From a virus, in IMG/VR virus record IMGVR_UViG_3300045988_105534: 64,000 nt of DNA; one strand, written 5' to 3'. A program made the translations under genes and the position numbers. Of this stretch, positions 19,732 to 57,824 are shown piece after piece. Position 1 is the first letter of the stretch. Each line of letters opens with the position of its first letter. The notes under the pieces are model-generated. The model made no database searches. It saw only the letters and a program-made list of their open reading frames with translations, and was not told where the DNA came from.

Positions 19732-20682
19732 ATGGCAGCAACACAGTTTGAAGTTATTGAAACAGTAAACAATAATAACGCAGAAGAATCTGAAACAAAG
19801 ATTAAAAGACGCAAGGACGGAAGTCCTAAATGGACTCGATCTAACAAACGGAAAGGCGTATCATCTTTAGTGTATCCGATTAAGAACAGAGAAAAATTTG
19901 CAGCCTTTAATGCATATTTTAGAGATCAGATTGATAAATCATATACAGAGTACAAACGATATGTAGCTGCTAGAAATAATCTTTTGGTTGCAGTTGGAAA
20001 TAATACAGCGTATCGTATTTCTGATATTGTTAGACTTAAATGGGGTGATTTATTAGACGATAAGACTCGTAAGCAGGAAAAGAAAACAAAGAAATTCAGA
20101 ACTGTATACTTTAACGATTTGGTAACTGAAGCAGTGGATATTTTCTTTGAAGCTGTTGCAGGAACTAAATATGATGTCAAGATTGATGGCAAAGTGCCAA
20201 TGGATGATTATGTTTTCGGAACATGTAAGTCTGGATCAGGGCATATGACTGAAGCAAATGCTTTGGATTTTGTTAAAAAAGGTGCTAAGGCAGTTGGAAT
20301 TGAGGATAACATTGGTACACATACATTGCGAAAAAACTTTGTATACTGGACACTTGTTGATCATAAGGATGATCAGAATGTATTGTATACACTTATGAGA
20401 TTACTGAATCATAGTAGTCCTGCAATGACGTTTTTATATGCTACAATTACAGAAGAGGAAACACATGTATTGTTCGATGATATTGCTCAGACGTATAAGG
20501 ATATTATCAGCGGAGTATTTAACGGATTAAAGGAAAATGTTATTAATGTGAGTTATGATAGAGTAATAGAGATTATCAAGTGTGCTTATGAGACAGGGAA
20601 AGATGATGCAGATAAAGATGATGGAGTACATGAGGATAATATGCAAGCATTAAAAGAATTACTGGAAGGAGTTATTTTATGA
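19732..20682 (+). CDS. Tyrosine site-specific recombinase (small integrase/Xer-like)
   Basis: Arg box AYRISDIVRLKWGDL; HxxR in GTHTLRKNFVYW; His-Tyr box LLNHSSPAMTFLYAT. Confidence 0.7.
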   Translation: MAATQFEVIETVNNNNAEESETKIKRRKDGSPKWTRSNKRKGVSSLVYPIKNREKFAAFNAYFRDQIDKSYTEYKRYVAARNNLLVAVGNNTAYRISDIVRLKWGDLLDDKTRKQEKKTKKFRTVYFNDLVTEAVDIFFEAVAGTKYDVKIDGKVPMDDYVFGTCKSGSGHMTEANALDFVKKGAKAVGIEDNIGTHTLRKNFVYWTLVDHKDDQNVLYTLMRLLNHSSPAMTFLYATITEEETHVLFDDIAQTYKDIISGVFNGLKENVINVSYDRVIEIIKCAYETGKDDADKDDGVHEDNMQALKELLEGVIL

Positions 20683-21425
20683 TATTTGTAACAGGAGATA
20701 CGCATGGGGATTGGATGACTCGATTAAACAGTCATTCTTTTCCTGAAGGCGTAGGGTTGACTAAAGATGATTATGTAATCATTTGTGGAGATTTTGGATT
20801 ATGGCATGACACAAAAGAAGAACGACATAATCTGAAATGGTTGGACAACAAACCATTTACTACTTTGTTTGTATGTGGGAACCATGAGAATTATGATAGG
20901 CTGTACGAATATCCTGTAGAGAAATGGTGTGGAGGAAAGATTCATAAGATTTGTAGCTCTGTTTTTCATCTCATGCGAGGACAGGTATTTGATGTCCATG
21001 GAAAGAGATTCTTTACGTTTGGTGGAGCTAGTTCTCACGATGTTCAGGATGGGATTTTAGAGCAAGACGATCCAAGAATTAATGAGTGGTATCGTGATTA
21101 TGACAAAATGTTTAGGATCAATCATACGTCATGGTGGAAAGAGGAGTTGCCTTCAGAAGAAGAAATGACAGAAGGTATGATGAATCTGGAGCAGAATGGA
21201 TCGCAAGTGGATTATATAATTACACATAGTCCATACACATCTGCATTACGTCAAATGGATCAAGGATCAGGAGTGTACAAAACAGATATATTGACGGATT
21301 ATTTGCAAGAGATTAAAGAATCTGTCGAATATAAAAAGTGGTTCTTTGGGCATATGCATGTTAATCAGAACTTTCCAGAAGATAACGCAATTGCAATTTA
21401 CGAACAGATCATTAGGATTTTATAG
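20679..21425 (+). CDS. Calcineurin-like metallophosphoesterase (lambda-phosphatase-like)
   Basis: GDTHGD, CGDFGLWH and GNHEN motifs in canonical order. Confidence 0.75.
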   Translation: MIFVTGDTHGDWMTRLNSHSFPEGVGLTKDDYVIICGDFGLWHDTKEERHNLKWLDNKPFTTLFVCGNHENYDRLYEYPVEKWCGGKIHKICSSVFHLMRGQVFDVHGKRFFTFGGASSHDVQDGILEQDDPRINEWYRDYDKMFRINHTSWWKEELPSEEEMTEGMMNLEQNGSQVDYIITHSPYTSALRQMDQGSGVYKTDILTDYLQEIKESVEYKKWFFGHMHVNQNFPEDNAIAIYEQIIRIL

Positions 21426-21829: not shown

Positions 21830-21867
21830 TTGCACCTATTGACAGGGTGCAAAAAGTATGGTATATT
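21830..21867 (+). promoter_or_regulatory. Operator-flanked sigma70 promoter (copy 1): TTGCACC-N-TTGACA-GGGTGCAA ... TATATT
   Basis: TTGACA at 21839-44, 17-nt spacer, TATATT at 21862-67. A 7-bp inverted repeat TTGCACC/GGTGCAA brackets the -35. Near-identical to 63789-63826. Confidence 0.6.
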
Positions 21868-21917
21868 TAATTCATGAAAATAAAAAATACAACTGGGGAA
21901 AGTTGAGGGACGTAAAA

Positions 21918-22367
21918 ATGAACGGATATACTAACAAAGAAAGAAAAGGAAACGATAACAGAAAAAGAAAAGAATATGTATATGGCAAATATCAAAATCC
22001 TCAAGTTTGGGGAATATATTTTGCAGATTTGCCGAAAATTGAAGGTAGTCACATCTTGCATGGGAAAAGACCAGTCATCGTATATTCTAATAATATTTGT
22101 AATAATACGAGCACAGAGATCAACGTGTATCCAATTACAAAAAAATTAAGGAACTGGATACCGACACATGTAACCATTTATCCAAATACCAGTAATGGAT
22201 TAAAAATGGTATCACAGGTGTATTTAGAGCAAGGAAGAACAATTCCAAAGAATAATCTTTTAGAGTATTGGGGAAGAATATCTGATCTATCTTTAATGTT
22301 AAAAATAGGACATGGCATTTTAATACAAAACGGCATGTTATCGTACATGAATGCAATGGCATCCTAG
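21918..22367 (+). CDS. MazF/PemK-like endoribonuclease toxin-fold protein with a basic N-terminal extension
   Basis: GIYFADLPKIEGSHILHGKRPVIVYSN and VYPITKK...TSNGL...LEQGRTI match PemK motifs. Start moved to the ATG with a GAGGGA Shine-Dalgarno, downstream of the promoter. Confidence 0.55.
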   Translation: MNGYTNKERKGNDNRKRKEYVYGKYQNPQVWGIYFADLPKIEGSHILHGKRPVIVYSNNICNNTSTEINVYPITKKLRNWIPTHVTIYPNTSNGLKMVSQVYLEQGRTIPKNNLLEYWGRISDLSLMLKIGHGILIQNGMLSYMNAMAS

Positions 22368-33625: not shown

Positions 33626-33763
33626 GGAAACATAGCTCAGTTGGTAGAGCAGGCAATACATAAACATTCATTTTTCTACCTCCATATAAGTATTTTTATT
33701 TATTTACATTTAATTTTCATCACATATAAATTGCCGACACAGGTTCGATTCCTGTTGTTTCCA
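33626..33763 (+). tRNA. tRNA gene (anticodon loop reads UACAUAA, so CAU-like for Met or Ile2) interrupted by a ~67-nt AT-rich insertion next to the anticodon loop
   Basis: Acceptor GGAAACA/TGTTTCC is perfect. D-arm GCTC-AGTTGGTA-GAGC. Anticodon stem GGCAA/TTGCC. T-arm ACAGG-TTCGATT-CCTGT. Discriminator A. 74 nt lie between the anticodon stem halves. Confidence 0.6.
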
Positions 33764-33765
33764 CT

Positions 33766-39255: not shown

Positions 39256-39471
39256 ATGGCTAAGAAACAAAATAAAAATTTTAAAATACTTGGTGTGTTT
39301 TGGGAATATATAAAATATTCTGCTCAAATAATATTGAGTACGCCAAAAGTGAGGCTTACTATAGCACTCACTAAAATCTATGTTATATTGTCGGATTTAT
39401 GTTATTTGGGGTTTGACAACTATAAAAATAACATAGGTACAAAACTAGATTGCTGGATCAGATGCTTATGA
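39256..39471 (+). CDS. Small membrane protein (71 aa)
   Basis: ORF; hydrophobic. Confidence 0.45.
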   Translation: MAKKQNKNFKILGVFWEYIKYSAQIILSTPKVRLTIALTKIYVILSDLCYLGFDNYKNNIGTKLDCWIRCL

Positions 39472-39506: not shown

Positions 39507-39674
39507 ATGAAAACAAGACAAGAACGTAAACAGGAAATAAAACGATTCTTTGATCGGTTGAGTCCGCAGGAATTGGACGCACTGTTAGAAAGAAATGGAA
39601 TCAATGATAAAGAGTCAAAAGAGGCTCTTTCATATAGAATTATTAAAGAAGAAATTGAGAAAGGAGAGATATAA
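39507..39674 (+). CDS. Small basic protein (55 aa), not in the ORF track
   Basis: MKTRQERKQEIKRFFDRLSPQELDALLERNG...; stop overlaps the next ATG. Confidence 0.4.
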   Translation: MKTRQERKQEIKRFFDRLSPQELDALLERNGINDKESKEALSYRIIKEEIEKGEI

Positions 39675-40021
39675 TGAACCACTTCTTATATATTGAATCA
39701 CGGGAAGAAGAGAATACATCCCTCGATTCTAAACGTGTTTTATTAAATGAAGAAAATTACAAACATATTATTTCATCATTAGATCATTATCCACCGACGG
39801 CAGATGAAGTTAAGAGAGCAATTTGTATTTTGATAGGACGATTGATCTATAGAAGCGTTTGGAATATGGAATCTGATATTGATAGTTTAAATATGAGTTT
39901 ATCCCCGCCAAAAGAAATGACGGTTGCAGAAATCGAAAAAGAACTCGGTCATAAAGTAAAAATTGTAGAGGAGAAAGAATGCCAATGGCAAAAAAGAAAC
40001 AAGGAATGTCGTTTGAAATGA
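39674..40021 (+). CDS. Hypothetical protein (115 aa)
   Basis: GAGAAAGGAGAG Shine-Dalgarno. Confidence 0.6.
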   Translation: MNHFLYIESREEENTSLDSKRVLLNEENYKHIISSLDHYPPTADEVKRAICILIGRLIYRSVWNMESDIDSLNMSLSPPKEMTVAEIEKELGHKVKIVEEKECQWQKRNKECRLK

Positions 40022-40290
40022 TGATGCAAAATATGGAAATTAATCCAAGACAATTGTATCGTCGTAGTTCGTGGAAGAAGACACGAACAACTTATGATTA
40101 TGTGTTTATGATGTGCGAAGAAGAATTAAATGAGATTATTCCATTTGATAAAAAATATAAAATGAAACCACTCTTATGTAGAGACCAAAATGGAGTTATA
40201 ACATTGGGATGGTTGCCTACACAAGAGGATATTTTCGCAAATGATTGGGTTGAGCAAGGATGGGATTTTAACAGTAAAAGGAAGAGGTGA
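40006..40290 (+). CDS. DUF2829 (Tad2-like) protein, copy 1; alternative start 39979
   Basis: N-terminus MSFEMMMQ...YRRSSW and C-terminus GWLPTQEDIFANDWV match the conserved ends of DUF2829 proteins. Confidence 0.5.
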   Translation: MSFEMMMQNMEINPRQLYRRSSWKKTRTTYDYVFMMCEEELNEIIPFDKKYKMKPLLCRDQNGVITLGWLPTQEDIFANDWVEQGWDFNSKRKR

Positions 40291-40298
40291 GTAATTAA

Positions 40299-40583
40299 TT
40301 GAATTTTATAAAAGCAATGACTGCAATAAAAAAAGACAAAACGACTATAAGAAGAGGCATTTGGGGAAAGGAAAAGTATTTGAAAATTTATTCGTCAGAA
40401 TTAACTAATGTTTATTTTGAGTGTAATGATATGGGTGAATATAAGCCAGATTCAATTATTTTTTTATTTGATAAAGAAAACGCAGAAGTTTGGATACCTC
40501 TTGCGGAAGATGTATATGCAGATGACTGGGAAATATATGTTGAGTCAATTAATAAAGGTGAGCAGATAAAGGAGGAAAAATAA
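40299..40583 (+). CDS. DUF2829 (Tad2-like) protein, copy 2; TTG start
   Basis: MNFIKAMTAIKKDKTTIRRGIWGKEKYL ... VWIPLAEDVYADDWEIY; AGGAAGAGGTGAG Shine-Dalgarno before TTG. Confidence 0.55.
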   Translation: MNFIKAMTAIKKDKTTIRRGIWGKEKYLKIYSSELTNVYFECNDMGEYKPDSIIFLFDKENAEVWIPLAEDVYADDWEIYVESINKGEQIKEEK

Positions 40584-41536
40584 TGAAGTGTTTTTATCAT
40601 GTTGATCAAGACGGAATCGTGTCTGGATTCTACGTCAGAAAAGCTTGTGAACAGCGAGGTTTAGCATTTGAACCAGAGGACTTCCGAAAAATTAATTACG
40701 GTATGAAATTCCCGTTTCATGACATTAAACAGGATGAATTTGTATTCATTGTAGACTACAGCATTGAGCCAGAAGAAATGTGGCAGTTGTTTAGTATTAC
40801 AAAGAATGTATTTTGGATCGACCATCATCAATCTACGATTGAAACGTATAAAGATTTTAAGTGTGATGTGAAAGGAATTCGAATCACTGGAGAAGGTATT
40901 TCAGGAGCGAATTTGACATGGTTATATTTTAAAGAAATGTGTGACGAAGATTGGGAACAAATTGAGAGGACGGATGAGAAAAATGTAAAAAGATTACTCA
41001 ATATATATAAATATAAAGAAGATTATCCAAAACTGGCAGAATATACAGCCATGTGGGATACATTTTATTTTGGTGCAACGTCAAAAAAATTCATAAAAGC
41101 ATTTCACTATGCATTTGAATCGTATGATTTTGATGCGTTAAGTCCATTGCTAAACACGTTAAATGAAGATCAAGGAATTTATGAAGCAGCAAAAATTATT
41201 GGTGATATGATAACAGATGGCTTATCAATTATTGAGTATTTAGCAGCAAATGCAGAACAGTATCTTAGAGCATATGGTTTTGAAACCACATTTGAGGGAC
41301 ATAAAGTCTATGCTATCAACCGAGCATTAATCAATTCTGATTTCTTTGAATCTATTGATGCTTCTAAATATGATATGTTCATTGGTTTTTCGTTCAATGG
41401 TAGTATGTGGGAATATCAGTTACGATCAGCAGAACAGGATAAAGTAAATGTGTATGAGCTTGCTGTGAAATATGGTGGTGGCGGTCATCCAAATGCAGCT
41501 GGATTTAGAAGTGAGAAATACATGTTAGGAGTGTGA
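40583..41536 (+). CDS. DHH-DHHA1 family phosphoesterase (NrnA/GdpP-like nanoRNase / pAp / cyclic-nucleotide phosphodiesterase)
   Basis: HVDQDGIVSG and IDHHQST are DHH motifs; GGGHPNAAG is a DHHA1 motif. 317 aa, the size of stand-alone NrnA. Confidence 0.8.
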   Translation: MKCFYHVDQDGIVSGFYVRKACEQRGLAFEPEDFRKINYGMKFPFHDIKQDEFVFIVDYSIEPEEMWQLFSITKNVFWIDHHQSTIETYKDFKCDVKGIRITGEGISGANLTWLYFKEMCDEDWEQIERTDEKNVKRLLNIYKYKEDYPKLAEYTAMWDTFYFGATSKKFIKAFHYAFESYDFDALSPLLNTLNEDQGIYEAAKIIGDMITDGLSIIEYLAANAEQYLRAYGFETTFEGHKVYAINRALINSDFFESIDASKYDMFIGFSFNGSMWEYQLRSAEQDKVNVYELAVKYGGGGHPNAAGFRSEKYMLGV

Positions 41537-41539
41537 TGT

Positions 41540-42301
41540 ATGGATAAAGGTATAACTATAGAATTTTATAGGAATTATGAATTTGATATTGTGCGAGGTA
41601 TTTGTCTTGGAGATGAATCAACAAAAATTGACTTCCCTATAAATGATGAAACTTTAAACATAATGGCTTCAGATTTTCAATATAATGAACAAACTATACA
41701 GTTAGATTATGGTTATAAATATAGAAGAAAAAATTATGTAAAAATCGACGAAATGCAAGCTACATCAACAAATATATTGTCATGTAACGGAATTATATTA
41801 AAAGATGGCATTAAGTTTTTTATTGGTGAAGCAGTAATGGATGTTTCTAGTGGAAAAGAAATATATAAATTATATGACAAAGATGTATATAAAGATAAAA
41901 CTTATTATAATCAAACGAAAGAAATGGTATTTGAATGGGCAAAGAAAGATATATATAAAGTTGTAATGATGATGGACAGGATTGCAGGAGAGGCAATTAA
42001 TCGAGCGATGACCGAATATGCTAATCACGGATCTTTGTATCGTATGTTCTTTCCACCTAATATTCCTGAGCCACAATATAGTTATTCTATGCATGATTTA
42101 TACTTGATGACTGATCCTAATATAATGAAGGGTGACATTCGTAGGCGTATATGCTGCAAGGTACCTAATTTTGATAGGAGGGTGAGGAAATGGGATTATA
42201 GTGCAGATCGTTATGAACATTACTTAGTGTTGGATTACAGTAAGGAAATCAATAAATTCATTAAAGAACAGGAGGATAAAAAATGTGAAGAAATTAAATG
42301 A
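41540..42301 (+). CDS. Hypothetical protein (253 aa)
   Basis: TAGGAGTG Shine-Dalgarno. Confidence 0.6.
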   Translation: MDKGITIEFYRNYEFDIVRGICLGDESTKIDFPINDETLNIMASDFQYNEQTIQLDYGYKYRRKNYVKIDEMQATSTNILSCNGIILKDGIKFFIGEAVMDVSSGKEIYKLYDKDVYKDKTYYNQTKEMVFEWAKKDIYKVVMMMDRIAGEAINRAMTEYANHGSLYRMFFPPNIPEPQYSYSMHDLYLMTDPNIMKGDIRRRICCKVPNFDRRVRKWDYSADRYEHYLVLDYSKEINKFIKEQEDKKCEEIK

Positions 42302-42818
42302 TGAACAGCGAAAGCTGATTGAAGATAACTATTCTTTGATTTGGCATTTGCATGAAAAGTATTTTACAAAATTTACAGATTTTGATACATATATGGATCT
42401 TGGGCGTATGGCAATTTGTAAAGCAGCATTAAAATGGGACGAGTCTAAAGGAACTTTTGGTACATATCTCTTCTGGGTATTACGTTCAGAAGTGAATCAA
42501 TATTATACAAAATGGCACAGACCAACAGAAAAAATGAATAGGAATGCTGAATCGTTAGATACGCCATTGGCAGGATATGAACCAGAAGATGATATTACAA
42601 TCGGAACAACACTGATGAGTGGGGATAACGTAGAAGATGAGGTACTTACAAAGGTACATTTTCAAAATGAGTTTGATAAATTGGCACCGAGAAATAAAAA
42701 GATTATTGTTTTAAAGCAGAAAGGTTTAACACAAAGACAAATTGCAAGTCAGCTTGGAATCACTCATCAGTGGGTTAGTCAAAATATTGTACAGTTTAAG
42801 AAAGCATTATGTGGATAA
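42285..42818 (+). CDS. Sigma-70 family RNA polymerase sigma factor (phage-encoded), paralog 1
   Basis: Region 2-like FGTYLFWVLRSEV and region 4 HTH LTQRQIASQLGITHQWVSQNI. GTG start with AGGAGGA Shine-Dalgarno. N-terminus parallels 48538. Confidence 0.8.
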   Translation: MKKLNDEQRKLIEDNYSLIWHLHEKYFTKFTDFDTYMDLGRMAICKAALKWDESKGTFGTYLFWVLRSEVNQYYTKWHRPTEKMNRNAESLDTPLAGYEPEDDITIGTTLMSGDNVEDEVLTKVHFQNEFDKLAPRNKKIIVLKQKGLTQRQIASQLGITHQWVSQNIVQFKKALCG

Positions 42819-42831
42819 AAGAGGTGAGATC

Positions 42832-43665
42832 ATGACAATTGAAGAAGTAAAGGATTACATAAACTCGTCTACAGAGTATGATTTTTTGCGAGATTATCCG
42901 CATAAAATTGCTTTTCTAACATTAGGTGGAAGTTATGCCTATGGAACAAATACAGAGGATTCTGACATTGATTTACGTGGCGTTTTCCTTAGTGATAAAA
43001 GAGAGATTTTGTTGAACAATAATCAAAACAATCTTGAGAAGACCGATGATCGTAAAGACGTTGATACTGTGATACATTCGCATATTAAGATGATCAACAT
43101 GCTTGCTAAGGGTAATCCTACGTTTTTAGAGTTGCTATACTTTGCACCAGATCGCTATTTGTATGTATCCGATATTGGTATGGAGTTGATCAAAAATAGA
43201 GATATGTTCTTATCTAAGAGAGTTTATCATGCATATAAAGGATATATATGTGATTGCCTGACTCGAACGAGTTTTAAGTATTATAAAAATAAAGATTCAG
43301 AGAAAGAAAAGCAAAAGGCGGAACGATACGCTAATAAATCAATGATGCACGCAGTTCGATTATTGTTACAGGGCATTGAATTATTGCATAACGGAACAAT
43401 GTTAGGATCTATGGATGACATAGGAAAAGATCTTGTAAAGATCAAAGAAGGATATAATAGTACGCATAAAACATATAGATTTGGCAAACACAATGAGCAT
43501 ACAGAATATTTCCCAAATCAGTCATACGATGTTTTTATTGAAGGATTACTTTATCAATTTGATTATGATTATATGAATACTGATTTGCCAGACGAACCAG
43601 ACTGGGATCGTATCAATAACTTCTTGATGACAACAAATGAACGAATTGTGAGAGGAATGGTGTAA
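42832..43665 (+). CDS. Pol-beta superfamily nucleotidyltransferase
   Basis: IAFLTLGGSYAYGTNTEDSDIDLRGVF matches the GS-x(9-10)-DxD nucleotidyltransferase motif; AAGAGGTGAG Shine-Dalgarno. Confidence 0.65.
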   Translation: MTIEEVKDYINSSTEYDFLRDYPHKIAFLTLGGSYAYGTNTEDSDIDLRGVFLSDKREILLNNNQNNLEKTDDRKDVDTVIHSHIKMINMLAKGNPTFLELLYFAPDRYLYVSDIGMELIKNRDMFLSKRVYHAYKGYICDCLTRTSFKYYKNKDSEKEKQKAERYANKSMMHAVRLLLQGIELLHNGTMLGSMDDIGKDLVKIKEGYNSTHKTYRFGKHNEHTEYFPNQSYDVFIEGLLYQFDYDYMNTDLPDEPDWDRINNFLMTTNERIVRGMV

Positions 43666-43667
43666 AA

Positions 43668-43937
43668 ATGTATGTAAAGATTGGAGACGAAATTGCTTTT
43701 CATCCTGGCGAATGCTTAGAAGAATTTGTTGAATCTTGCAGGATGACTCCTTATCAGCTTGCGAGTAAAATTGGCATGGATGTTGATTATGTTCAAGGGT
43801 TGATTGACGGATTACAAAGTATTACAAAAGAATTTGCAAAAGCAATGGCGGATCATTATGGGTTCGCTGACGATGGGCAGTTCTGGTTAAATTTACAAGA
43901 GACATTTGATAAGAAAGTAGGTGATAGAGATGTTTAA
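43668..43937 (+). CDS. Hypothetical protein (89 aa)
   Basis: Translationally coupled with the upstream gene. Confidence 0.55.
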   Translation: MYVKIGDEIAFHPGECLEEFVESCRMTPYQLASKIGMDVDYVQGLIDGLQSITKEFAKAMADHYGFADDGQFWLNLQETFDKKVGDRDV

Positions 43938-44463
43938 ATTAATAAAACAACCACGTTCTGATAACGATAAATATACTAAATATGATGTTGTGCTTGATAA
44001 AGAGTATACTGTAGAAGAATTTATTGATGCGATTGCAGATGGAAGAAATGGAACGCATGGTCAAATTACAATAAAAAATGATAAAGAAGCCATTGAATCA
44101 TTGGTCTATAATATCGAGAGTATTGATTATAGACATTCTATACTTCAAAATGCTGAAGAAAAAATTAAACAAGTATGGGCAGATGGTAGCTGGTTAAAAA
44201 TTAATTATACTATCTTACTTGAAAACAAAAAGGAAGCACAAAAAGGTTCGCTCAGGTTCATTGTTAAGAAGCCGAATGAGGAAGAATCAGTGGTGGTTAT
44301 TTTTAAGAACAAATCCGATGGCACATATTCATTTGTTAATTTGACAAAAGAGCATATTTGTTCATGTAAATTTAAAACAATTGAGGAAGCCATCCAGGAT
44401 ATGAATGATCGCTTAAGAAAAGGATTGATTGAGTCCTATATTGTGAAAGGAGAAAGAAAATAA
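43921..44463 (+). CDS. Hypothetical protein (180 aa)
   Basis: GTAGGTGA Shine-Dalgarno; overlaps the upstream gene end. Confidence 0.55.
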   Translation: MIEMFKLIKQPRSDNDKYTKYDVVLDKEYTVEEFIDAIADGRNGTHGQITIKNDKEAIESLVYNIESIDYRHSILQNAEEKIKQVWADGSWLKINYTILLENKKEAQKGSLRFIVKKPNEEESVVVIFKNKSDGTYSFVNLTKEHICSCKFKTIEEAIQDMNDRLRKGLIESYIVKGERK

Positions 44464-44801
44464 TGGATATACATATTGGAGATTTTTGGCAGAGTAAATG
44501 TAATCCAAAAGTAATTCAACATGTAGTTAATTTTTCATTTAGAATGGGTGGAGTCCCAAGTAGTAAAGATATGCTACTGGTCTGTGAAGAATTTCATTAT
44601 ACAAAGATAGGTGAGAATCCTGCCTCTGTCAAAGAAGATTCCAGATTCTTTTCACATATTACAGTGGATAATTTTAAAAAGATGAATCAATGTATTCTAA
44701 GTGCTGAGAGGATTATGAAAGATACTCAGGCATTTAAAACAGATAAAGATATTTTGGATTATTTAACGAAGAAAGTGGAGGAGAAATTAAATGCAAAATA
44801 A
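44463..44801 (+). CDS. Hypothetical protein (112 aa)
   Basis: AAAGGAGAAAG Shine-Dalgarno. Confidence 0.55.
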   Translation: MDIHIGDFWQSKCNPKVIQHVVNFSFRMGGVPSSKDMLLVCEEFHYTKIGENPASVKEDSRFFSHITVDNFKKMNQCILSAERIMKDTQAFKTDKDILDYLTKKVEEKLNAK

Positions 44802-45264
44802 TATATTTCAGATTTATTTGGCTGGCGGTATGCAGGATTTATCATTTGAAGAGCAGAATACTTGGAGAGAAAGAATTTGCAATCAAATTATTGCTATGCG
44901 TAGAATACTTAATGTTAATATGAAAGAAGTCAACATTATTAACCCCGTTGATTATTACAATTTTCAAACAGAGTTACATGATACAGAAAAAGAAGTAATG
45001 AGATTTGATACAAATTTTGTTAGAAATAGTGATCTTGTTGTGGTAAATGCGAATGATCCGAAGAGCATTGGTACATCTATGGAGATTGCAATTGCATATG
45101 AACGTCATATTCCTGTACTGATTTTGAATACAGAAAAGAAAAGATTGCATGCTTGGTGGGTGCAAATGTCTGACAAGATATTTGACGATGAGAAAAAATT
45201 ATGTACATATATATATGACTTTTATCTCAGGATGAATCATAGTAGTATTCGAGCATGGGTGTAA
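44791..45264 (+). CDS. Nucleoside 2-deoxyribosyltransferase-fold protein (NDT / dNMP N-hydrolase-like)
   Basis: IYLAGGM near the N-terminus; SDLVVVN ... GTSMEIAIAYERHIPVL carries the catalytic Glu in a GT-x-x-E context typical of the NDT/Rcl fold. Confidence 0.55.
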   Translation: MQNNIFQIYLAGGMQDLSFEEQNTWRERICNQIIAMRRILNVNMKEVNIINPVDYYNFQTELHDTEKEVMRFDTNFVRNSDLVVVNANDPKSIGTSMEIAIAYERHIPVLILNTEKKRLHAWWVQMSDKIFDDEKKLCTYIYDFYLRMNHSSIRAWV

Positions 45265-48537: not shown

Positions 48538-49080
48538 ATGTCGTTGAAATTAAATGACGAACAGAGAAAATTAGTAGAACAAAATCATAATTTGATTTAC
48601 TCTGCTATGACAAAATGCGGTATCCGCAGACAAGATTTTGATGACTATTATGGATTCGCTGCTATTGGGTTGTGTAAGGCAGCAATTGATTATGATAAAA
48701 CACGATCTAAATCATTTTCGACATATGCGTATTTATGTATACAAAATGAAATAACGGTATATAACAAATACAGATTTCGGCAGAGAAGAAAGGGTGATAT
48801 GAATACTATTTCATATAATCATATGTTAGATGATTGGGATGAAGACAAAAATGAAAATTCATTTCTTTTAAAGGATGAAGAAAATTTTGAAAAAAATATT
48901 ATTTTTAAGTTGAATTTTCAAGATAAATGTTACACACTAAATAATAAGGACAGAATGATTGTTGATTTAAAATCAAAAGGTTATACATATCAAGAAATTG
49001 CAAAAATGTTTGGTACATCATTTCAAGCGATACAACAAAAGATTAAAAAAATGCGATCAACAACATTTTCCAGATTATAA
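48538..49080 (+). CDS. Sigma-70 family RNA polymerase sigma factor (phage-encoded), paralog 2
   Basis: MSLKLNDEQRKLVEQNHNLIY; region 2-like FSTYAYLCIQNEI; C-terminal HTH YTYQEIAKMFGTSFQAIQQKI. Confidence 0.8.
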   Translation: MSLKLNDEQRKLVEQNHNLIYSAMTKCGIRRQDFDDYYGFAAIGLCKAAIDYDKTRSKSFSTYAYLCIQNEITVYNKYRFRQRRKGDMNTISYNHMLDDWDEDKNENSFLLKDEENFEKNIIFKLNFQDKCYTLNNKDRMIVDLKSKGYTYQEIAKMFGTSFQAIQQKIKKMRSTTFSRL

Positions 49081-54968: not shown

Positions 54969-56562
54969 CATTTTGAACGATTGCAGAGGACTTTTTGAAG
55001 ATGAGGTATTTGAAATTATCATGCAGGAGCGTGGTATTGACGATCCAGAACATTTTCTAAATCCTACGGAAGATGATTTACTTTCTCTTGATGACTTAAA
55101 AAATATTGATAAAGCATACAGACTCGTGATGAGTGCGGTGAATGAAGATAAACGTATTGCAGTACATTTTGATACAGATACTGACGGCATCACATCTGGT
55201 GCCGTTATGACACGATATTTAAAAAACATGACAGAAAATCCAGTAGATGTATACATTAACCGAGGCAAACAGCATGGATTAGCAAATCAGGACATTGCTA
55301 AGTTTTATGGGTATGATTTACTGATTGTCGTTGATAGTTTGGATAAAGACGAGACTCAGTATAAGGATTTAAAAGAAACAGGAGTTGATGTGATTGTGTT
55401 AGACCACCATGCCATCGATCCAGATGTTCCTTATGACAACTATTGCACATTAGTTTCTTCTCAGAGAGAATATGAAAATCCACAGTTATCTGGTGCAGGT
55501 GTTGTCTGGAAGTTTTGCAAGTATATTGATGAGCAGAATGGTACAGATTATGCAGATAATTTGGTCGATCTAGCAGGCGTTGGGCTGATTGCAGATATGA
55601 TGGATATGAGAGTAATGGAGAATCGTTACATTGTATCCGAAGCTTTGAAAGAAATTAGAAATCCTGCGATTAAGAAGATTATTGGTGGATTTGAATTCAA
55701 CAGCACAGCAGTTGCTTTTAGTATTGCACCGTTGGTTAATGCTGCAAACAGAATGGATCAGAATGAAATTGCTCTAAATGCTTTCCTTGAAGATGACAAT
55801 AAAAAGTTACGAGGATATATTAAACAATTAAAGCAATGCAAAGAAGACCAAAATGAAGAGGTCGCACAGCTGATGCCAATGATTGCGGAACAGTGTGAAG
55901 CTCAGAGTGATAAAAAGATGATCACAACTTTTATCGACACTGATTATGGTATTTCTGGGTTAATTGGAAACAAATTGCTTGAAAAATACCAGAAGCCGAT
56001 TCTTGTGCTAAAGAAAAATGAAGATACATATGCAGGATCTATGAGAGCAGTTGGTGTAAAAGACTTCCGACAGATGTGTAATAACAGTCAGTTGGCTGAA
56101 GCAAATGGACATGAACTTGCCAGTGGTATTGAAATTCCTAGAAAGAACTTTGCTGAGTTCACCTCTTATATAGAAGAAACTCTTCCAGATAAGCCAGAAG
56201 ATACAACAGTTGATGTCGATATTATGCTTGATATTTCAGACATCACAAGAAAAATGGTTGACATGATTAAGAAAATTGATCGTATTTCTGGGCAAGGATT
56301 TAAACCTGTAAGAGTTTATATTGAAGAGATTGACGACTATGACATTGGTCAGATGAGCAATTATAAACATCTTGTCCTGAAACCATGTAACAATGATAAA
56401 TTGTGGATCATTAAATGGAACTATGATGGATCGTTTGAGGATATGGAAGACCATTCTATGATGAATGATGAGTTTTGTGCAGTTACTACACTTGATTGCG
56501 GATTCTTTGGAAGAAAGTTTGTGCTGAAAGCTGTGTGTGATTCACTTGAAGAGGTGGGATGA
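54943..56562 (+). CDS. RecJ-like DHH-family single-stranded DNA exonuclease (start uncertain; alternative ATG at 55021)
   Basis: AVHFDTDTDGITSGAV and VLDHHAID are DHH motifs; RecJ-like linker; 513-539 aa. Confidence 0.7.
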   Translation: MKTSKKKYNILNDCRGLFEDEVFEIIMQERGIDDPEHFLNPTEDDLLSLDDLKNIDKAYRLVMSAVNEDKRIAVHFDTDTDGITSGAVMTRYLKNMTENPVDVYINRGKQHGLANQDIAKFYGYDLLIVVDSLDKDETQYKDLKETGVDVIVLDHHAIDPDVPYDNYCTLVSSQREYENPQLSGAGVVWKFCKYIDEQNGTDYADNLVDLAGVGLIADMMDMRVMENRYIVSEALKEIRNPAIKKIIGGFEFNSTAVAFSIAPLVNAANRMDQNEIALNAFLEDDNKKLRGYIKQLKQCKEDQNEEVAQLMPMIAEQCEAQSDKKMITTFIDTDYGISGLIGNKLLEKYQKPILVLKKNEDTYAGSMRAVGVKDFRQMCNNSQLAEANGHELASGIEIPRKNFAEFTSYIEETLPDKPEDTTVDVDIMLDISDITRKMVDMIKKIDRISGQGFKPVRVYIEEIDDYDIGQMSNYKHLVLKPCNNDKLWIIKWNYDGSFEDMEDHSMMNDEFCAVTTLDCGFFGRKFVLKAVCDSLEEVG

Positions 56563-57824
56563 TTATGGCAGGAAAAGAAGTATTTTGTTCAGTCTGCGGT
56601 TTATCATCTACTTTGGACGGACATTTTTGGAAAGAAAAGAAGTTGTGCAACAGACACAATATGCAGTTAGAAAAACATGGAAAACTGTTAGATAAAGATA
56701 TAGTGATCCCTAAAAAGAGACATAGATGGACTCCAGAAGAAGAAGTCAGATTAGAAGAGTTGTATAAACAAGGAGTTTCTTTTGAAAAAATTAGTAAACA
56801 AATGAATCTATCCGTGGCAGCCATAGCGGCTCGAAGTCGTCATTTGAATCTTGGCAATAAGTATATGAGGTCTAATAATCCTAATTTTAAAGCCACATAT
56901 CAGGATTATGATTGGTGTTATGAAAGATATGTTGTTAAGGGAATGACTCATCAAGAAATGGCAGATGAATGTGGTGTCTCGTTAAGAGTTATTCAGAAAT
57001 GGTGTTCTGAAGTTCATAAATTAAATTGTTGGACTTTCAAAAACAATAAGACATTAACCGATAAACAGTATCAAATTATTTTATTTGGCACATTAGGGGA
57101 TGGGCATATTGATAAAAGAGAGACGCAACCTTTGTATATTGAATGTCATTCTATAGCAGAAAAGGATTACGTGTTTTGGAAATATGAAGAATTAAAAGAT
57201 TTATGTAACTCTGAGCCAAAGTATTATGAAGGTGGCTATAAAGATTTTGGTTCTGGTACAAAGTATTGGTGTAAACCACATTACAGATTTGAGACAAGAA
57301 TTATTAATCAATTGAAGGACATTCGAGACATGCCAAGAATCAATAAGATTTGGCAATTGAATGAATTTGGATTATCTCTTCATTGCTTAGACGATGGATG
57401 CAGAGGTAAATCAGCGTGGGAATTATGTTTGGCAGAATATACTCAGCAAGAAATTGATTTATATATCAAGCTGTGTAAAAAGAGATTTGGGTTATATGCT
57501 AAACAGCAGACAGATAAAAGATATATAAGATTTGATTCAGATTCAAGTAGAATTATTGATCAAATTATTTTAAACAATATTCCTAATTCGCTTGACATTA
57601 TCAAAAAGAAGATATTAGAAAACGATAAAATTTCTAAAAAAGTAAGATACATTTATGTTGTCATGCAGAACGGAGAACAGATTGGTTTATCTACATATTG
57701 TAGATCTCATGGTATTCCATATGAAAAGACAAGAAAATATGTCATTGAGCACAATATCTCTCGAATTCAAGAAGCTGATCTACTAAATAGATTAAAAGCT
57801 GGAGGATTAATGAATGCGGTATAA
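56559..57824 (+). CDS. Free-standing LAGLIDADG-family homing endonuclease with N-terminal zinc-ribbon/HTH region
   Basis: Two LAGLIDADG-like motifs, ILFGTLGDGHI and LHCLDDGCRGKS; N-terminal CSVCG...CNRH and an HTH-like RWTPEEEVRLEELYKQGVSFEKIS. Confidence 0.6.
   Translation: MIMAGKEVFCSVCGLSSTLDGHFWKEKKLCNRHNMQLEKHGKLLDKDIVIPKKRHRWTPEEEVRLEELYKQGVSFEKISKQMNLSVAAIAARSRHLNLGNKYMRSNNPNFKATYQDYDWCYERYVVKGMTHQEMADECGVSLRVIQKWCSEVHKLNCWTFKNNKTLTDKQYQIILFGTLGDGHIDKRETQPLYIECHSIAEKDYVFWKYEELKDLCNSEPKYYEGGYKDFGSGTKYWCKPHYRFETRIINQLKDIRDMPRINKIWQLNEFGLSLHCLDDGCRGKSAWELCLAEYTQQEIDLYIKLCKKRFGLYAKQQTDKRYIRFDSDSSRIIDQIILNNIPNSLDIIKKKILENDKISKKVRYIYVVMQNGEQIGLSTYCRSHGIPYEKTRKYVIEHNISRIQEADLLNRLKAGGLMNAV

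Follow-up and report, generated by a model that had tools for sequence, protein, structure and literature searches.

A sigma-adjacent phage nucleotidyltransferase assigned to the RlaP family, a candidate RNA-end repair enzyme

The 64,000-nucleotide stretch of phage DNA analysed here (the window) carries, directly downstream of a sigma factor gene, a gene for a 277-aa nucleotidyltransferase that its profile matches identify as a full-length member of the RlaP family (RNA-ligase-associating Pol-beta, PF10127). We consider it likely that this protein is an RNA-end repair enzyme within a counter-defence-like block of genes, and that its linkage to the sigma factor is incidental and due to gene packing. 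An apparent enigma with the look of a signal synthase can be read in these terms as an ordinary member of a family that numbers over 10,000 sequences and has a recently reported activity, and correcting the signal-synthase-like reading is the main value of the analysis. It also places an RlaP in a Lachnospiraceae-type gut phage, in a block that contains recognised anti-defence genes and has no ligase nearby. The positions of the features are collected in Table 1.

Table 1. Positions of the features discussed, numbered from the first nucleotide of the window
Feature	Position	Strand	Details
Co-directional, tightly packed gene block	39508..45264	+	About twelve genes with gaps of at most 13 nt; includes the sigma-RlaP pair
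Two Tad2-like (Thoeris anti-defence 2-like) genes	39979..40583	+	PF11195, 34.2 and 46.3 bits (cutoff 25)
Stand-alone DHH-DHHA1 phosphoesterase	40583..41536	+	317 aa; phrog_4771, 9.6e-35; weak Pfam DHH and DHHA1
Phage sigma-70-family factor	42285..42818	+	177 aa; regions 2 and 4 only
Spacer with ribosome-binding site	42819..42831	+	13 nt; AGAGGTGA at 42820-42827, 4 nt before the RlaP ATG
RlaP-family (PF10127) Pol-beta-type nucleotidyltransferase	42832..43665	+	277 aa; ATG 42832, stop 43663-43665
Catalytic signature	42928..43065	+	G33-S34 (42928-42933), D45-I-D47 (42964-42972), D78 (43063-43065)
Exchangeable cassette	43234..43581	+	Residues ~135-250: C-terminal helical domain and beta hairpin
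HigA-like helix-turn-helix protein	43668..43937	+	89 aa; 2 nt downstream of RlaP; not HEPN
Second, paralogous phage sigma factor	48538..49080	+	180 aa; Sigma70_r2, 37.7 bits

The family assignment rests on the Pfam profile PF10127, which matched the protein at 87.2 bits (cutoff 23; E 1.9e-24) and aligned residues 20-266 with profile positions 14-248 of 249, nearly full-length; in PHROGs the gene matched phrog_388 (2e-42). Homology searches indicate that the gene is no orphan, with thousands of relatives that include NrdC.11 of phage T4: 4077 homologues were retrieved, with PF10127 in all among the matches listed, and tblastn returned 463 phage records. An Anaerostipes sp. assembly was the sole named source among the listed homologues, NrdC.11 was the sole named RlaP member aligned to the window protein (core identity just 28%), and the PcfJ gene of C. 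difficile phiCD211-type phages was all that a DNA search for annotated phage relatives brought up. The RlaP clade of the window is a short form (257-286 aa) without the insert of about 65 residues found in the 340-aa forms. One genome of the clade, IMGVR_UViG_3300045988_115054 (150,982 bp), encodes an RlaP 100% identical to that of the window.

Both ORFs of the pair are as a preliminary description of this DNA had given them (Table 1), and its call of a stand-alone Pol-beta-superfamily nucleotidyltransferase holds, with the signature intact. The peptide quoted there, LTLGGSYAYGTNTEDSDIDLRGVF, corresponds to residues 29-52, where G33-S34 is followed by ten residues and then by D45-x-D47, as read from the sequence; D78 is the third acidic residue. 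Absence of the catalytic acidic triad had been named as evidence that would count against the call. In an alignment of 39 homologue sequences the triad is conserved: D45 and D47 do not vary, and conservation is 90% or more at G33, S34 and D78.

An AlphaFold2 model of the protein (pLDDT 88.9, pTM 0.85) predicts with confidence a two-domain architecture, with the nucleotidyltransferase core at the N-terminus, then a helical C-terminal domain and one last helix. In the model the beta/alpha core extends to about residue 128, helices occupy residues 130-249 and the terminal helix residues 258-273, and this predicted order of secondary-structure elements agrees with what has been published on the crystal structure of PfRlaP. 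Searches of the PDB for an RlaP structure, by single sequence and by profile, gave no match. The nearest PDB folds in Foldseek were of the types of KNTase and HalB, two-domain proteins whose helical domain is HEPN-like, at TM < 0.4 and 11-16% identity, and structure matches in BFVD were phage nucleotidyltransferases at TM 0.6-0.7; CdnC was listed at a probability of 0.09 and TM 0.15, and poly(A) polymerase and TUTases at a probability of at most 0.16. The structural check proposed in the preliminary description therefore returned KNTase/HalB-like folds and phage nucleotidyltransferases, and not the CD-NTase or OAS types. The outcome it had set against its own reading, a generic aminoglycoside or MNT fold with a HEPN partner, was found in part, in that the nearest solved folds are KNTase and HalB; the HEPN partner is absent. 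Fold likeness alone cannot separate the window protein from small-molecule or oligonucleotide-forming nucleotidyltransferases.

The closeness to the OAS/CD-NTase active-site pattern, which had made a nucleotide-signal synthase seem plausible, amounts to a motif that runs through the whole superfamily. SMODS, CD-NTase and OAS1_C were absent from the matches of the 277-aa protein in Pfam (E <=0.01) and PADLOC. CD-NTase/OAS/cGAS identity was rejected because the cGAS/OAS-type fold, including its C-terminal lobe, was not matched, consistent with the low CdnC scores. For the same reasons it is highly unlikely that the enzyme makes a nucleotide signal or signal mimic with which the phage manipulates host defence, whether as a CD-NTase/OAS-like cyclase or as a HalB-like producer of oligo(deoxy)adenylates; identity to HalB is merely 14-16%, with scores not above those of KNTase, and the substrates of the RlaP-family members tested are RNA ends, not free NTPs by themselves (PMC12776372). 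Of the three roles offered in the preliminary description, the tRNA or RNA tailing enzyme survives, in the form of the RlaP family, and the signal synthase and the MNT antitoxin do not.

The MNT/MntA identity was rejected on size, score and gene neighbourhood. The NCBIfam model for MntA (NF047752) matched the motif region only, at 25.2 bits, far under its cutoff of 60, and the 277-aa protein has two domains, compared with the ~100-140 aa of MntA. No HEPN gene lies beside RlaP, its neighbours in Pfam, PHROGs and NCBIfam being the sigma factor and the HigA-like helix-turn-helix (HTH) protein. It is thus very unlikely that the enzyme neutralises a protein, for example by AMPylating a host HEPN ribonuclease toxin, and so modifies protein instead of repairing RNA; E. 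coli proteins were no substrates for the two RlaPs tested in the preprint (PMC12776372). Aminoglycoside nucleotidyltransferases of the KNTase/ANT(4') type were rejected as well, with neither a sequence-family match nor a close fold match. An accessory nucleotidyltransferase acting on small molecules, of the aminoglycoside or lincosamide type, is scarcely credible, given a TM of just 0.35-0.39, 11-15% identity and no match to resistance-enzyme families in Pfam; a role in antibiotic resistance is also implausible because hundreds of lytic phages, for which such resistance would make little sense, conserve the gene. A CCA-adding enzyme or poly(A) polymerase was rejected because the PolyA_pol head domain is missing among the Pfam matches.

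The identification of the upstream gene as a sigma factor was borne out by TIGR02937 (63.1 bits, cutoff 42.9; NCBIfam), by phrog_351 (9e-27) and by regions 2 and 4 in Pfam (Sigma70_r4 25.8 bits, cutoff 24.1; Sigma70_r2 23.0 bits, just below 24). Its GTG start at 42285 lies 9 nt after AGGAGG (42270-42275), its ORF overlaps the ORF upstream by 17 nt, and it ends with TAA at 42816-42818. The two sigma paralogues of the phage are 32% identical (E 8e-28) with their N-termini aligned. The preliminary description was right that the sigma and nucleotidyltransferase genes lie close together; their distance is 13 nt (42819-42831) and not 14. Of 41 related loci, 26 keep this spacer, which holds RlaP's own ribosome site (GAGGTGA). 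The remaining 15 have another sigma allele, whose TGA stop overlaps the RlaP ATG (ATGA) in the classical coupling layout. The two genes are very probably co-transcribed; that they are translationally coupled is an interpretation that possibly holds; the downstream gene has a ribosome site of its own. Their closeness is not special, as the 13-nt gap is typical of the window, where a crude gene call of the 64 kb gave a median intergenic distance of 18 nt, with 34% of neighbouring pairs at most 13 nt apart.

Across the gut-phage clade of the window the sigma gene adjoins RlaP in every locus (48/48), and replacement of the sigma body, where it has happened, has left the junction and the 5' end of RlaP conserved. 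These features, together with the ATGA overlap, would suit a functional pair in which RlaP tails or marks transcripts of the sigma holoenzyme, or modifies the polymerase, and coupling sets the stoichiometry. We regard such a pair as highly improbable, because the adjacency occurs in none of the 42 loci outside the clade (with a sigma gene 1-2 kb away in only two), a sigma neighbour is absent in Bcp1, Archie and T4, and in one locus (L006) RlaP directly follows a DHH homologue, without an intervening sigma gene. Moreover, each of the sigma alleles A, B and C is found with each of the RlaP alleles I, II and III, recombination breaks fall both between and within the two genes, and the spacing is the norm in the window. 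From these comparisons the linkage appears rare, confined to one clade and free of any functional tie. What had been called unusual, co-transcription with a sigma factor, is very probable, and the linkage is indeed rare. The two genes would share an operon because of gene packing in the phage lineage and not through joint function of their proteins, and the enzyme can be explained without any special sigma-enzyme module.

Within the block, a 55-aa ORF and a 115-aa ORF are followed by the two Tad2-like genes, the DHH phosphoesterase, a 253-aa unknown, sigma and RlaP, and then by the HigA-like HTH gene, ORFs of 180 and 112 aa and a nucleoside 2-deoxyribosyltransferase-like gene; no terminator-like site was found between 39508 and 45264. 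The sequence GGTTTGACAACTATAAAAA is duplicated at 39410 and 39475, just upstream of the block, and was rejected as a shared phage promoter, being merely a local duplicate. The phosphoesterase carries the motifs DxD, DHH and GGGH, as read from its sequence, and the HigA-like protein matched TIGR02607 at 39.9 bits, under the cutoff of 47.7, as well as phrog_1381 (3e-10) and HTH_31 in Pfam. From its gene content (two Tad2-like genes, DHH phosphoesterase, HigA-like HTH) the block looks like counter-defence. A general link between DHH and RlaP was rejected: NrdC.10 of T4 is no DHH protein, and a DHH gene lies within 3 kb of RlaP in only 4 of 42 non-clade loci, so the recurrent association is weak at best. 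A DHH homologue lies 0.9 kb upstream of RlaP in locus L008.

RNA ligase, RtcB, RtcA and Pnkp were sought in Pfam and PHROGs among the ORFs of at least 150 aa in the window (~50 proteins), and none was found; nor were RNA-repair partners found in the 10 kb beyond its right end (~74 kb in total, of a genome of ~150-165 kb), and a look-up beyond each end of the window returned nothing. Searches by phmmer with T4 Rnl1, T4 Rnl2, RtcB and RtcA likewise gave no match, either in the window or, out to 10 kb from RlaP, in 78 viral loci, with limited sensitivity for Rnl-type ligases. The RNA-repair neighbourhood of the family (RtcB, Rnl or other) was therefore not found within ~74 kb, and the association that gives the family its name is unseen locally. 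Adjacency to a ligase is not required of an RlaP, because T4 NrdC.11 sits apart from that phage's RNA ligases, and an RlaP in an anti-defence block without a near ligase is in favour of phage RlaPs working together with ligases of the host or with ones encoded at a distance.

Two bacterial RlaPs, PfRlaP and PaRlaP, were reported in a 2025 preprint to add one or two NMPs to RNA 3'-OH ends, with a preference for nicked tRNA, in a template-free reaction that accepts any NTP and uses two divalent ions, Mn2+ being preferred (PMC12776372). Activity was assayed for these two Pseudomonas enzymes only, the physiological role is a proposal, and T4 NrdC.11 is counted among the family (PMC12776372); the biochemistry and proposed role are drawn from PMC12776372 and PMC7824862. 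By analogy with the Pseudomonas enzymes, the phage RlaP would transfer one or two NMPs, without template and from any NTP, to an RNA 3'-OH, would use two divalent ions with Mn2+ preferred, and would favour the broken end of a nicked tRNA. Its gene context suggests that in the infected cell it may restore nucleotides that host ribotoxins have trimmed from tRNA or other RNA, after which a ligase, either RtcB of the host or one that the phage encodes outside the region examined, would reseal the RNA. Such a repair role would fit the two Tad2-like sponges, the DHH phosphoesterase and the HigA-like HTH protein nearby. The upstream sigma factor, one of two paralogues, would presumably retarget host RNA polymerase and would share the operon, possibly with translational coupling, through gene packing. 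The substrate of the phage enzyme could differ from that of the Pseudomonas RlaPs, because the putative substrate-binding helical domain is the most variable part of the protein.

DNA homology to sister phages is lost at 43233-43247 and picks up again at 43578-43585. RlaP identity among the sisters is 7-41% in this cassette, 87-100% over residues 1-60 and 72-97% over residues 249-277, the final helix (residues 251-277) staying conserved; dS is 1.3-2.0 in the cassette versus 0-1.1 in its flanks. Positive selection in the cassette was rejected, as dS is saturated and dN/dS < 1, which points to alleles that are old and have been moved around by recombination. That the helical domain is exchanged like a cassette offers a direct way to ask by experiment what determines the substrate choice of RlaP. 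Separately, a tRNA or tRNA-like gene of the phage, in the region 33626-33764, has a 67-nt insert in its anticodon loop, and a search of IMG/VR for an uninterrupted version found none. With this insert the transcript might need cutting, end-filling and rejoining. It is conceivable, if unlikely, that the helical domain is a swappable RNA-specificity cassette, that its ancient, highly diverged alleles, of which nearly identical gut phages carry at least three, are each fitted to another damaged RNA as part of an arms race against the anticodon nucleases of the host, and that one target is the phage's own insert-bearing tRNA-like gene.

Compared with known systems, what the protein has in common with CD-NTase, OAS and cGAS is confined to the superfamily motif, G[GS]-x9-13-DxD together with the third acidic residue, and it differs from them in lacking a family-level match of sequence or fold and effector or CBASS-type neighbours around RlaP. 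Kanamycin nucleotidyltransferase ANT(4') and Hailong HalB, the nearest solved structures, resemble it in combining a minimal Pol-beta core with a helical (HEPN-like) domain, but they belong to other sequence families (11-16% identity, TM < 0.4) and act on an antibiotic or convert dATP to oligo-dA. The sigma factor resembles the two-domain phage sigma factors of Bacillus phage vB_BmeM-Goe8, Bacillus phage G and Lysinibacillus phages, which likewise have ~180 aa, contain just regions 2 and 4 and occur as more than one paralogue per genome, although identity to the sigma genes of annotated phage records is only 23-28%. T4 NrdC.11 (335 aa) is longer than the window protein and has no sigma neighbour (gp55 is ~15 kb off), and T4 encodes Pnkp, Rnl1 and Rnl2 elsewhere in its genome, whereas such a partner was not found for the window phage. 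Both are phage-borne RlaP members that do not adjoin RNA ligases of their phage, with a core 28% identical (pairwise E 5e-12) and a K-x3-H-x2-R stretch common to their helical domains. The Pseudomonas rlaP genes lie between rtcB and rtcA, whereas the phage gene lies in an early-type block with no ligase in ~74 kb. With PfRlaP and PaRlaP of Pseudomonas fluorescens and P. aeruginosa (PMC12776372) the phage protein shares PF10127, the three conserved aspartates and, according to its model, the N-terminal nucleotidyltransferase domain, C-terminal helical domain and terminal helix, and probably also the addition of one or two NMPs to an RNA 3'-OH.

The nucleotidyltransferase gene belongs to the already known RlaP family. 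It is the second of two head-to-tail ORFs, preceded by a sigma factor gene, in phage DNA of 33% GC that carries nearly all of its genes on the plus strand. The GS-x10-DxD motif reported in the preliminary description was exact (G33-S34, D45 and D47; the quoted peptide spans residues 29-52), and the spacer between the genes, given there as 14 nt, measured 13 nt. Over profile positions 14-248 of 249 the 277-aa protein matched Pfam PF10127 (RlaP, 'RNA repair pathway DNA polymerase beta family'), scoring 87.2 bits where the cutoff is 23; Pfam NTP_transf_2 and Polbeta matches were confined to the motif region, and PHROGs placed the gene in phrog_388 ('nucleotidyltransferase', 2e-42). The protein database returned 4077 homologues, tblastn picked out relatives in 463 phage records, among them phages of Mycobacterium, Gordonia, Escherichia and Bacillus, and T4 NrdC.11, named as a family member in the RlaP preprint (PMC12776372), was alignable with the window protein (E 5e-12). 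Across a 39-sequence alignment D45, D47 and the helical-domain residue K169 were invariant, and G33, S34, D78 and the helical-domain residue R176 were at least 90% conserved.

An AlphaFold2 model built from the 39-sequence alignment was confident (pLDDT 88.9, pTM 0.85). In it, an alpha/beta core extends to about residue 128 and is followed by a helical domain that includes a beta hairpin (residues 130-249) and by a terminal helix (258-273), in agreement with how the PfRlaP crystal structure has been described. The resemblance to OAS/CD-NTase enzymes proposed from the motif did not extend beyond a superfamily signature: a fold search with the model returned CdnC at a probability of only 0.09, with no OAS or cGAS structure among the matches listed. 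The PDB copy searched held no RlaP structure; among predicted viral structures, many phage nucleotidyltransferases matched at TM 0.6-0.7, and baculovirus HE65 matched more weakly (TM ~0.5). Readings as an MNT antitoxin, also suggested earlier, or as an aminoglycoside nucleotidyltransferase were rejected on comparison with the defining features of those families. The PF10127 match and the biochemistry of the family instead single out the RNA tailing enzyme as the correct one of the functions initially offered.

The RlaP family takes its name from its linkage with RNA ligase genes. It has been described as the nucleotidyltransferase found most often in jumbo phages, with a predicted role in replacing nucleotides that RNA has lost on cleavage, ahead of ligation (PMC7824862). 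In a December 2025 preprint, two Pseudomonas RlaPs labelled RNA alone and not DNA or protein, added one or two NMPs to 3'-OH ends from any NTP as well as dATP, preferred Mn2+, favoured the 5' half of a nicked-tRNA mimic, and partly restored aminoacylation of a tRNA lacking one anticodon-loop nucleotide (PMC12776372). By homology, the window RlaP would share this mechanism, adding one or two NMPs at RNA 3'-OH ends and favouring nicked tRNA.

The upstream gene had been described as a phage sigma factor, and this identification held: it passed the NCBIfam sigma-70 superfamily model (63.1 bits, cutoff 42.9) and matched Pfam regions 2 and 4 and phrog_351 (9e-27). Among annotated genes, those closest to it encode sigma factors in large phages of Bacillus and Lysinibacillus (23-28% identity). 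The window encodes a paralogue with 32% identity, and the GTG start is supported because the N-termini of the two align.

Close RlaP homologues (53-100% identity) were found on contigs of 85-208 kb, metagenomic or viral and for the most part gut-derived; one is named from an Anaerostipes assembly. The sigma gene lay directly upstream of RlaP in 48/48 loci of this clade and in 0/42 loci with more distant RlaPs, two of which carry a sigma gene 1-2 kb downstream; the linkage was absent from Bcp1, Archie and T4. Gene gaps in the window have a median of 18 nt and 34% are no longer than 13 nt, so the sigma-RlaP gap is unremarkable. Where sigma belongs to class B (15 loci), its stop codon overlaps the start codon of RlaP as ATGA. 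DNA homology within the clade breaks at 41545-42264, 42350-42816 (sigma body) and 43234-43584 (inside RlaP), and sigma classes (A-C) and RlaP alleles (I-III) are mixed (17 A-I, 12 B-I, 6 A-III, 2 B-II, 2 A-II, 1 C-I, 1 B-III). Taken together, these data make the earlier proposal of co-transcription very likely and that of translational coupling plausible; nothing indicates a joint function of the two proteins.

Sequence comparison shows the RlaP helical domain (residues ~135-250) to be a cassette exchanged by recombination. Its alleles, deeply diverged and at least three in number, lie between the conserved nucleotidyltransferase core and the conserved last helix, with identities across alleles of 7-41% in the cassette compared to 87-100% for residues 1-60, 55-96% for 81-135 and 72-97% for the last 29 residues. 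Within the cassette synonymous divergence was saturated and dN/dS was below 1, and phages with swapped cassettes were 80-97% identical in flanking genes.

Both genes lie within a tightly packed block in which no terminator-like site was found. Its order is a 55-aa ORF, a 115-aa ORF, two tandem Tad2-like genes (Thoeris anti-defence 2-like; PF11195), a stand-alone DHH-DHHA1 phosphoesterase directly downstream of these, a hypervariable 253-aa protein, sigma, RlaP, a HigA-like HTH, 180-aa and 112-aa proteins, and a nucleoside 2-deoxyribosyltransferase-like gene. In sister phages the block shows gene decay or rearrangement: RlaP is broken into two ORFs of 61 and 230 aa (L007), sigma is shortened to 128 aa (L001, L002), and the HTH and 180-aa protein are fused (L003, L004). 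Just upstream of the block, an exact 19-nt duplicate, GGTTTGACAACTATAAAAA, includes a TTGACA -35-like hexamer; its two copies are 65 nt apart and the window holds no others.

Coordinates of the gene pair, its surroundings and related loci
Feature	Position	Strand	Detail
Metallophosphoesterase, calcineurin-like	20679-21425		phrog_1649
PemK/MazF-like endoribonuclease homologue	21858-22367		PF02452, 57 bits
Interrupted tRNA	33626-33764	+	
19-nt duplicate	39410-39428, 39475-39493		
Gene block	39508-45264	+	
Tad2-like genes	39979-40583	+	
DHH-DHHA1 phosphoesterase	40583-41536	+	
Sigma	GTG 42285 to TAA 42816-42818	+	177 aa; AGGAGG 9 nt 5' of start; 5' end shares 17 nt with 253-aa ORF
RlaP	ATG 42832 to stop 43663-43665	+	preceded by AGAGGTGA
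RlaP cassette	43234-43581	+	
Sigma paralogue	48538-49080	+	
LAGLIDADG gene	56559-57824		
Third Tad2-like gene	L091 17174-17437		stretch beyond right end
Shortened sigma	L001 5461-5847		
HTH fusion	L003 6840-7370		
Split RlaP	L007 5865-6693		
DHH-DHHA1 near RlaP	L006 4977-5930		directly adjacent
DHH-DHHA1 near RlaP	L008 4130-5074		

The DHH-DHHA1 gene also lies within 3 kb of RlaP in 4/42 non-clade loci, from unrelated phage lineages (L006, L008, L061, L067), a weak but repeated association; in L006, whose RlaP is 45% identical, the two abut without an intervening sigma gene.

Elsewhere the window carries replication genes, integrase-like genes and a LAGLIDADG homing-endonuclease gene inserted between a RecJ-like DHH gene and the DNA polymerase III alpha gene. 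The metallophosphoesterase gene lies ~430 nt upstream of the PemK/MazF-like gene, with a 106-aa ORF between them. Default ARAGORN found no tRNA in the window; ARAGORN -i and Rfam (46.4 bits, gathering score 29) detected a tRNA gene with a ~67-nt AU-rich anticodon-loop insert, which contains CCUCC. The insert falls short of group I intron length and shows no evident bulge-helix-bulge motif. This interrupted tRNA is conserved in 27 related loci (AU-rich inserts of 63-71 nt), and a search of IMG/VR yielded no uninterrupted copy.

Neither an RNA ligase nor RtcB nor Pnkp turned up among window ORFs of at least 150 aa or in the 10 kb past the right end of the window, a stretch with a LigA-type DNA ligase, an ADP-ribosylglycohydrolase and, ~5 kb out, a third Tad2-like gene. 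Searches by phmmer with T4 Rnl1, T4 Rnl2 and E. coli RtcB and RtcA gave no match within 10 kb of RlaP in any of 78 viral loci, with limited sensitivity for Rnl-type ligases. The ligase association that gave the family its name was thus not seen locally, an arrangement that is compatible with RlaP family membership, as the case of T4 illustrates.
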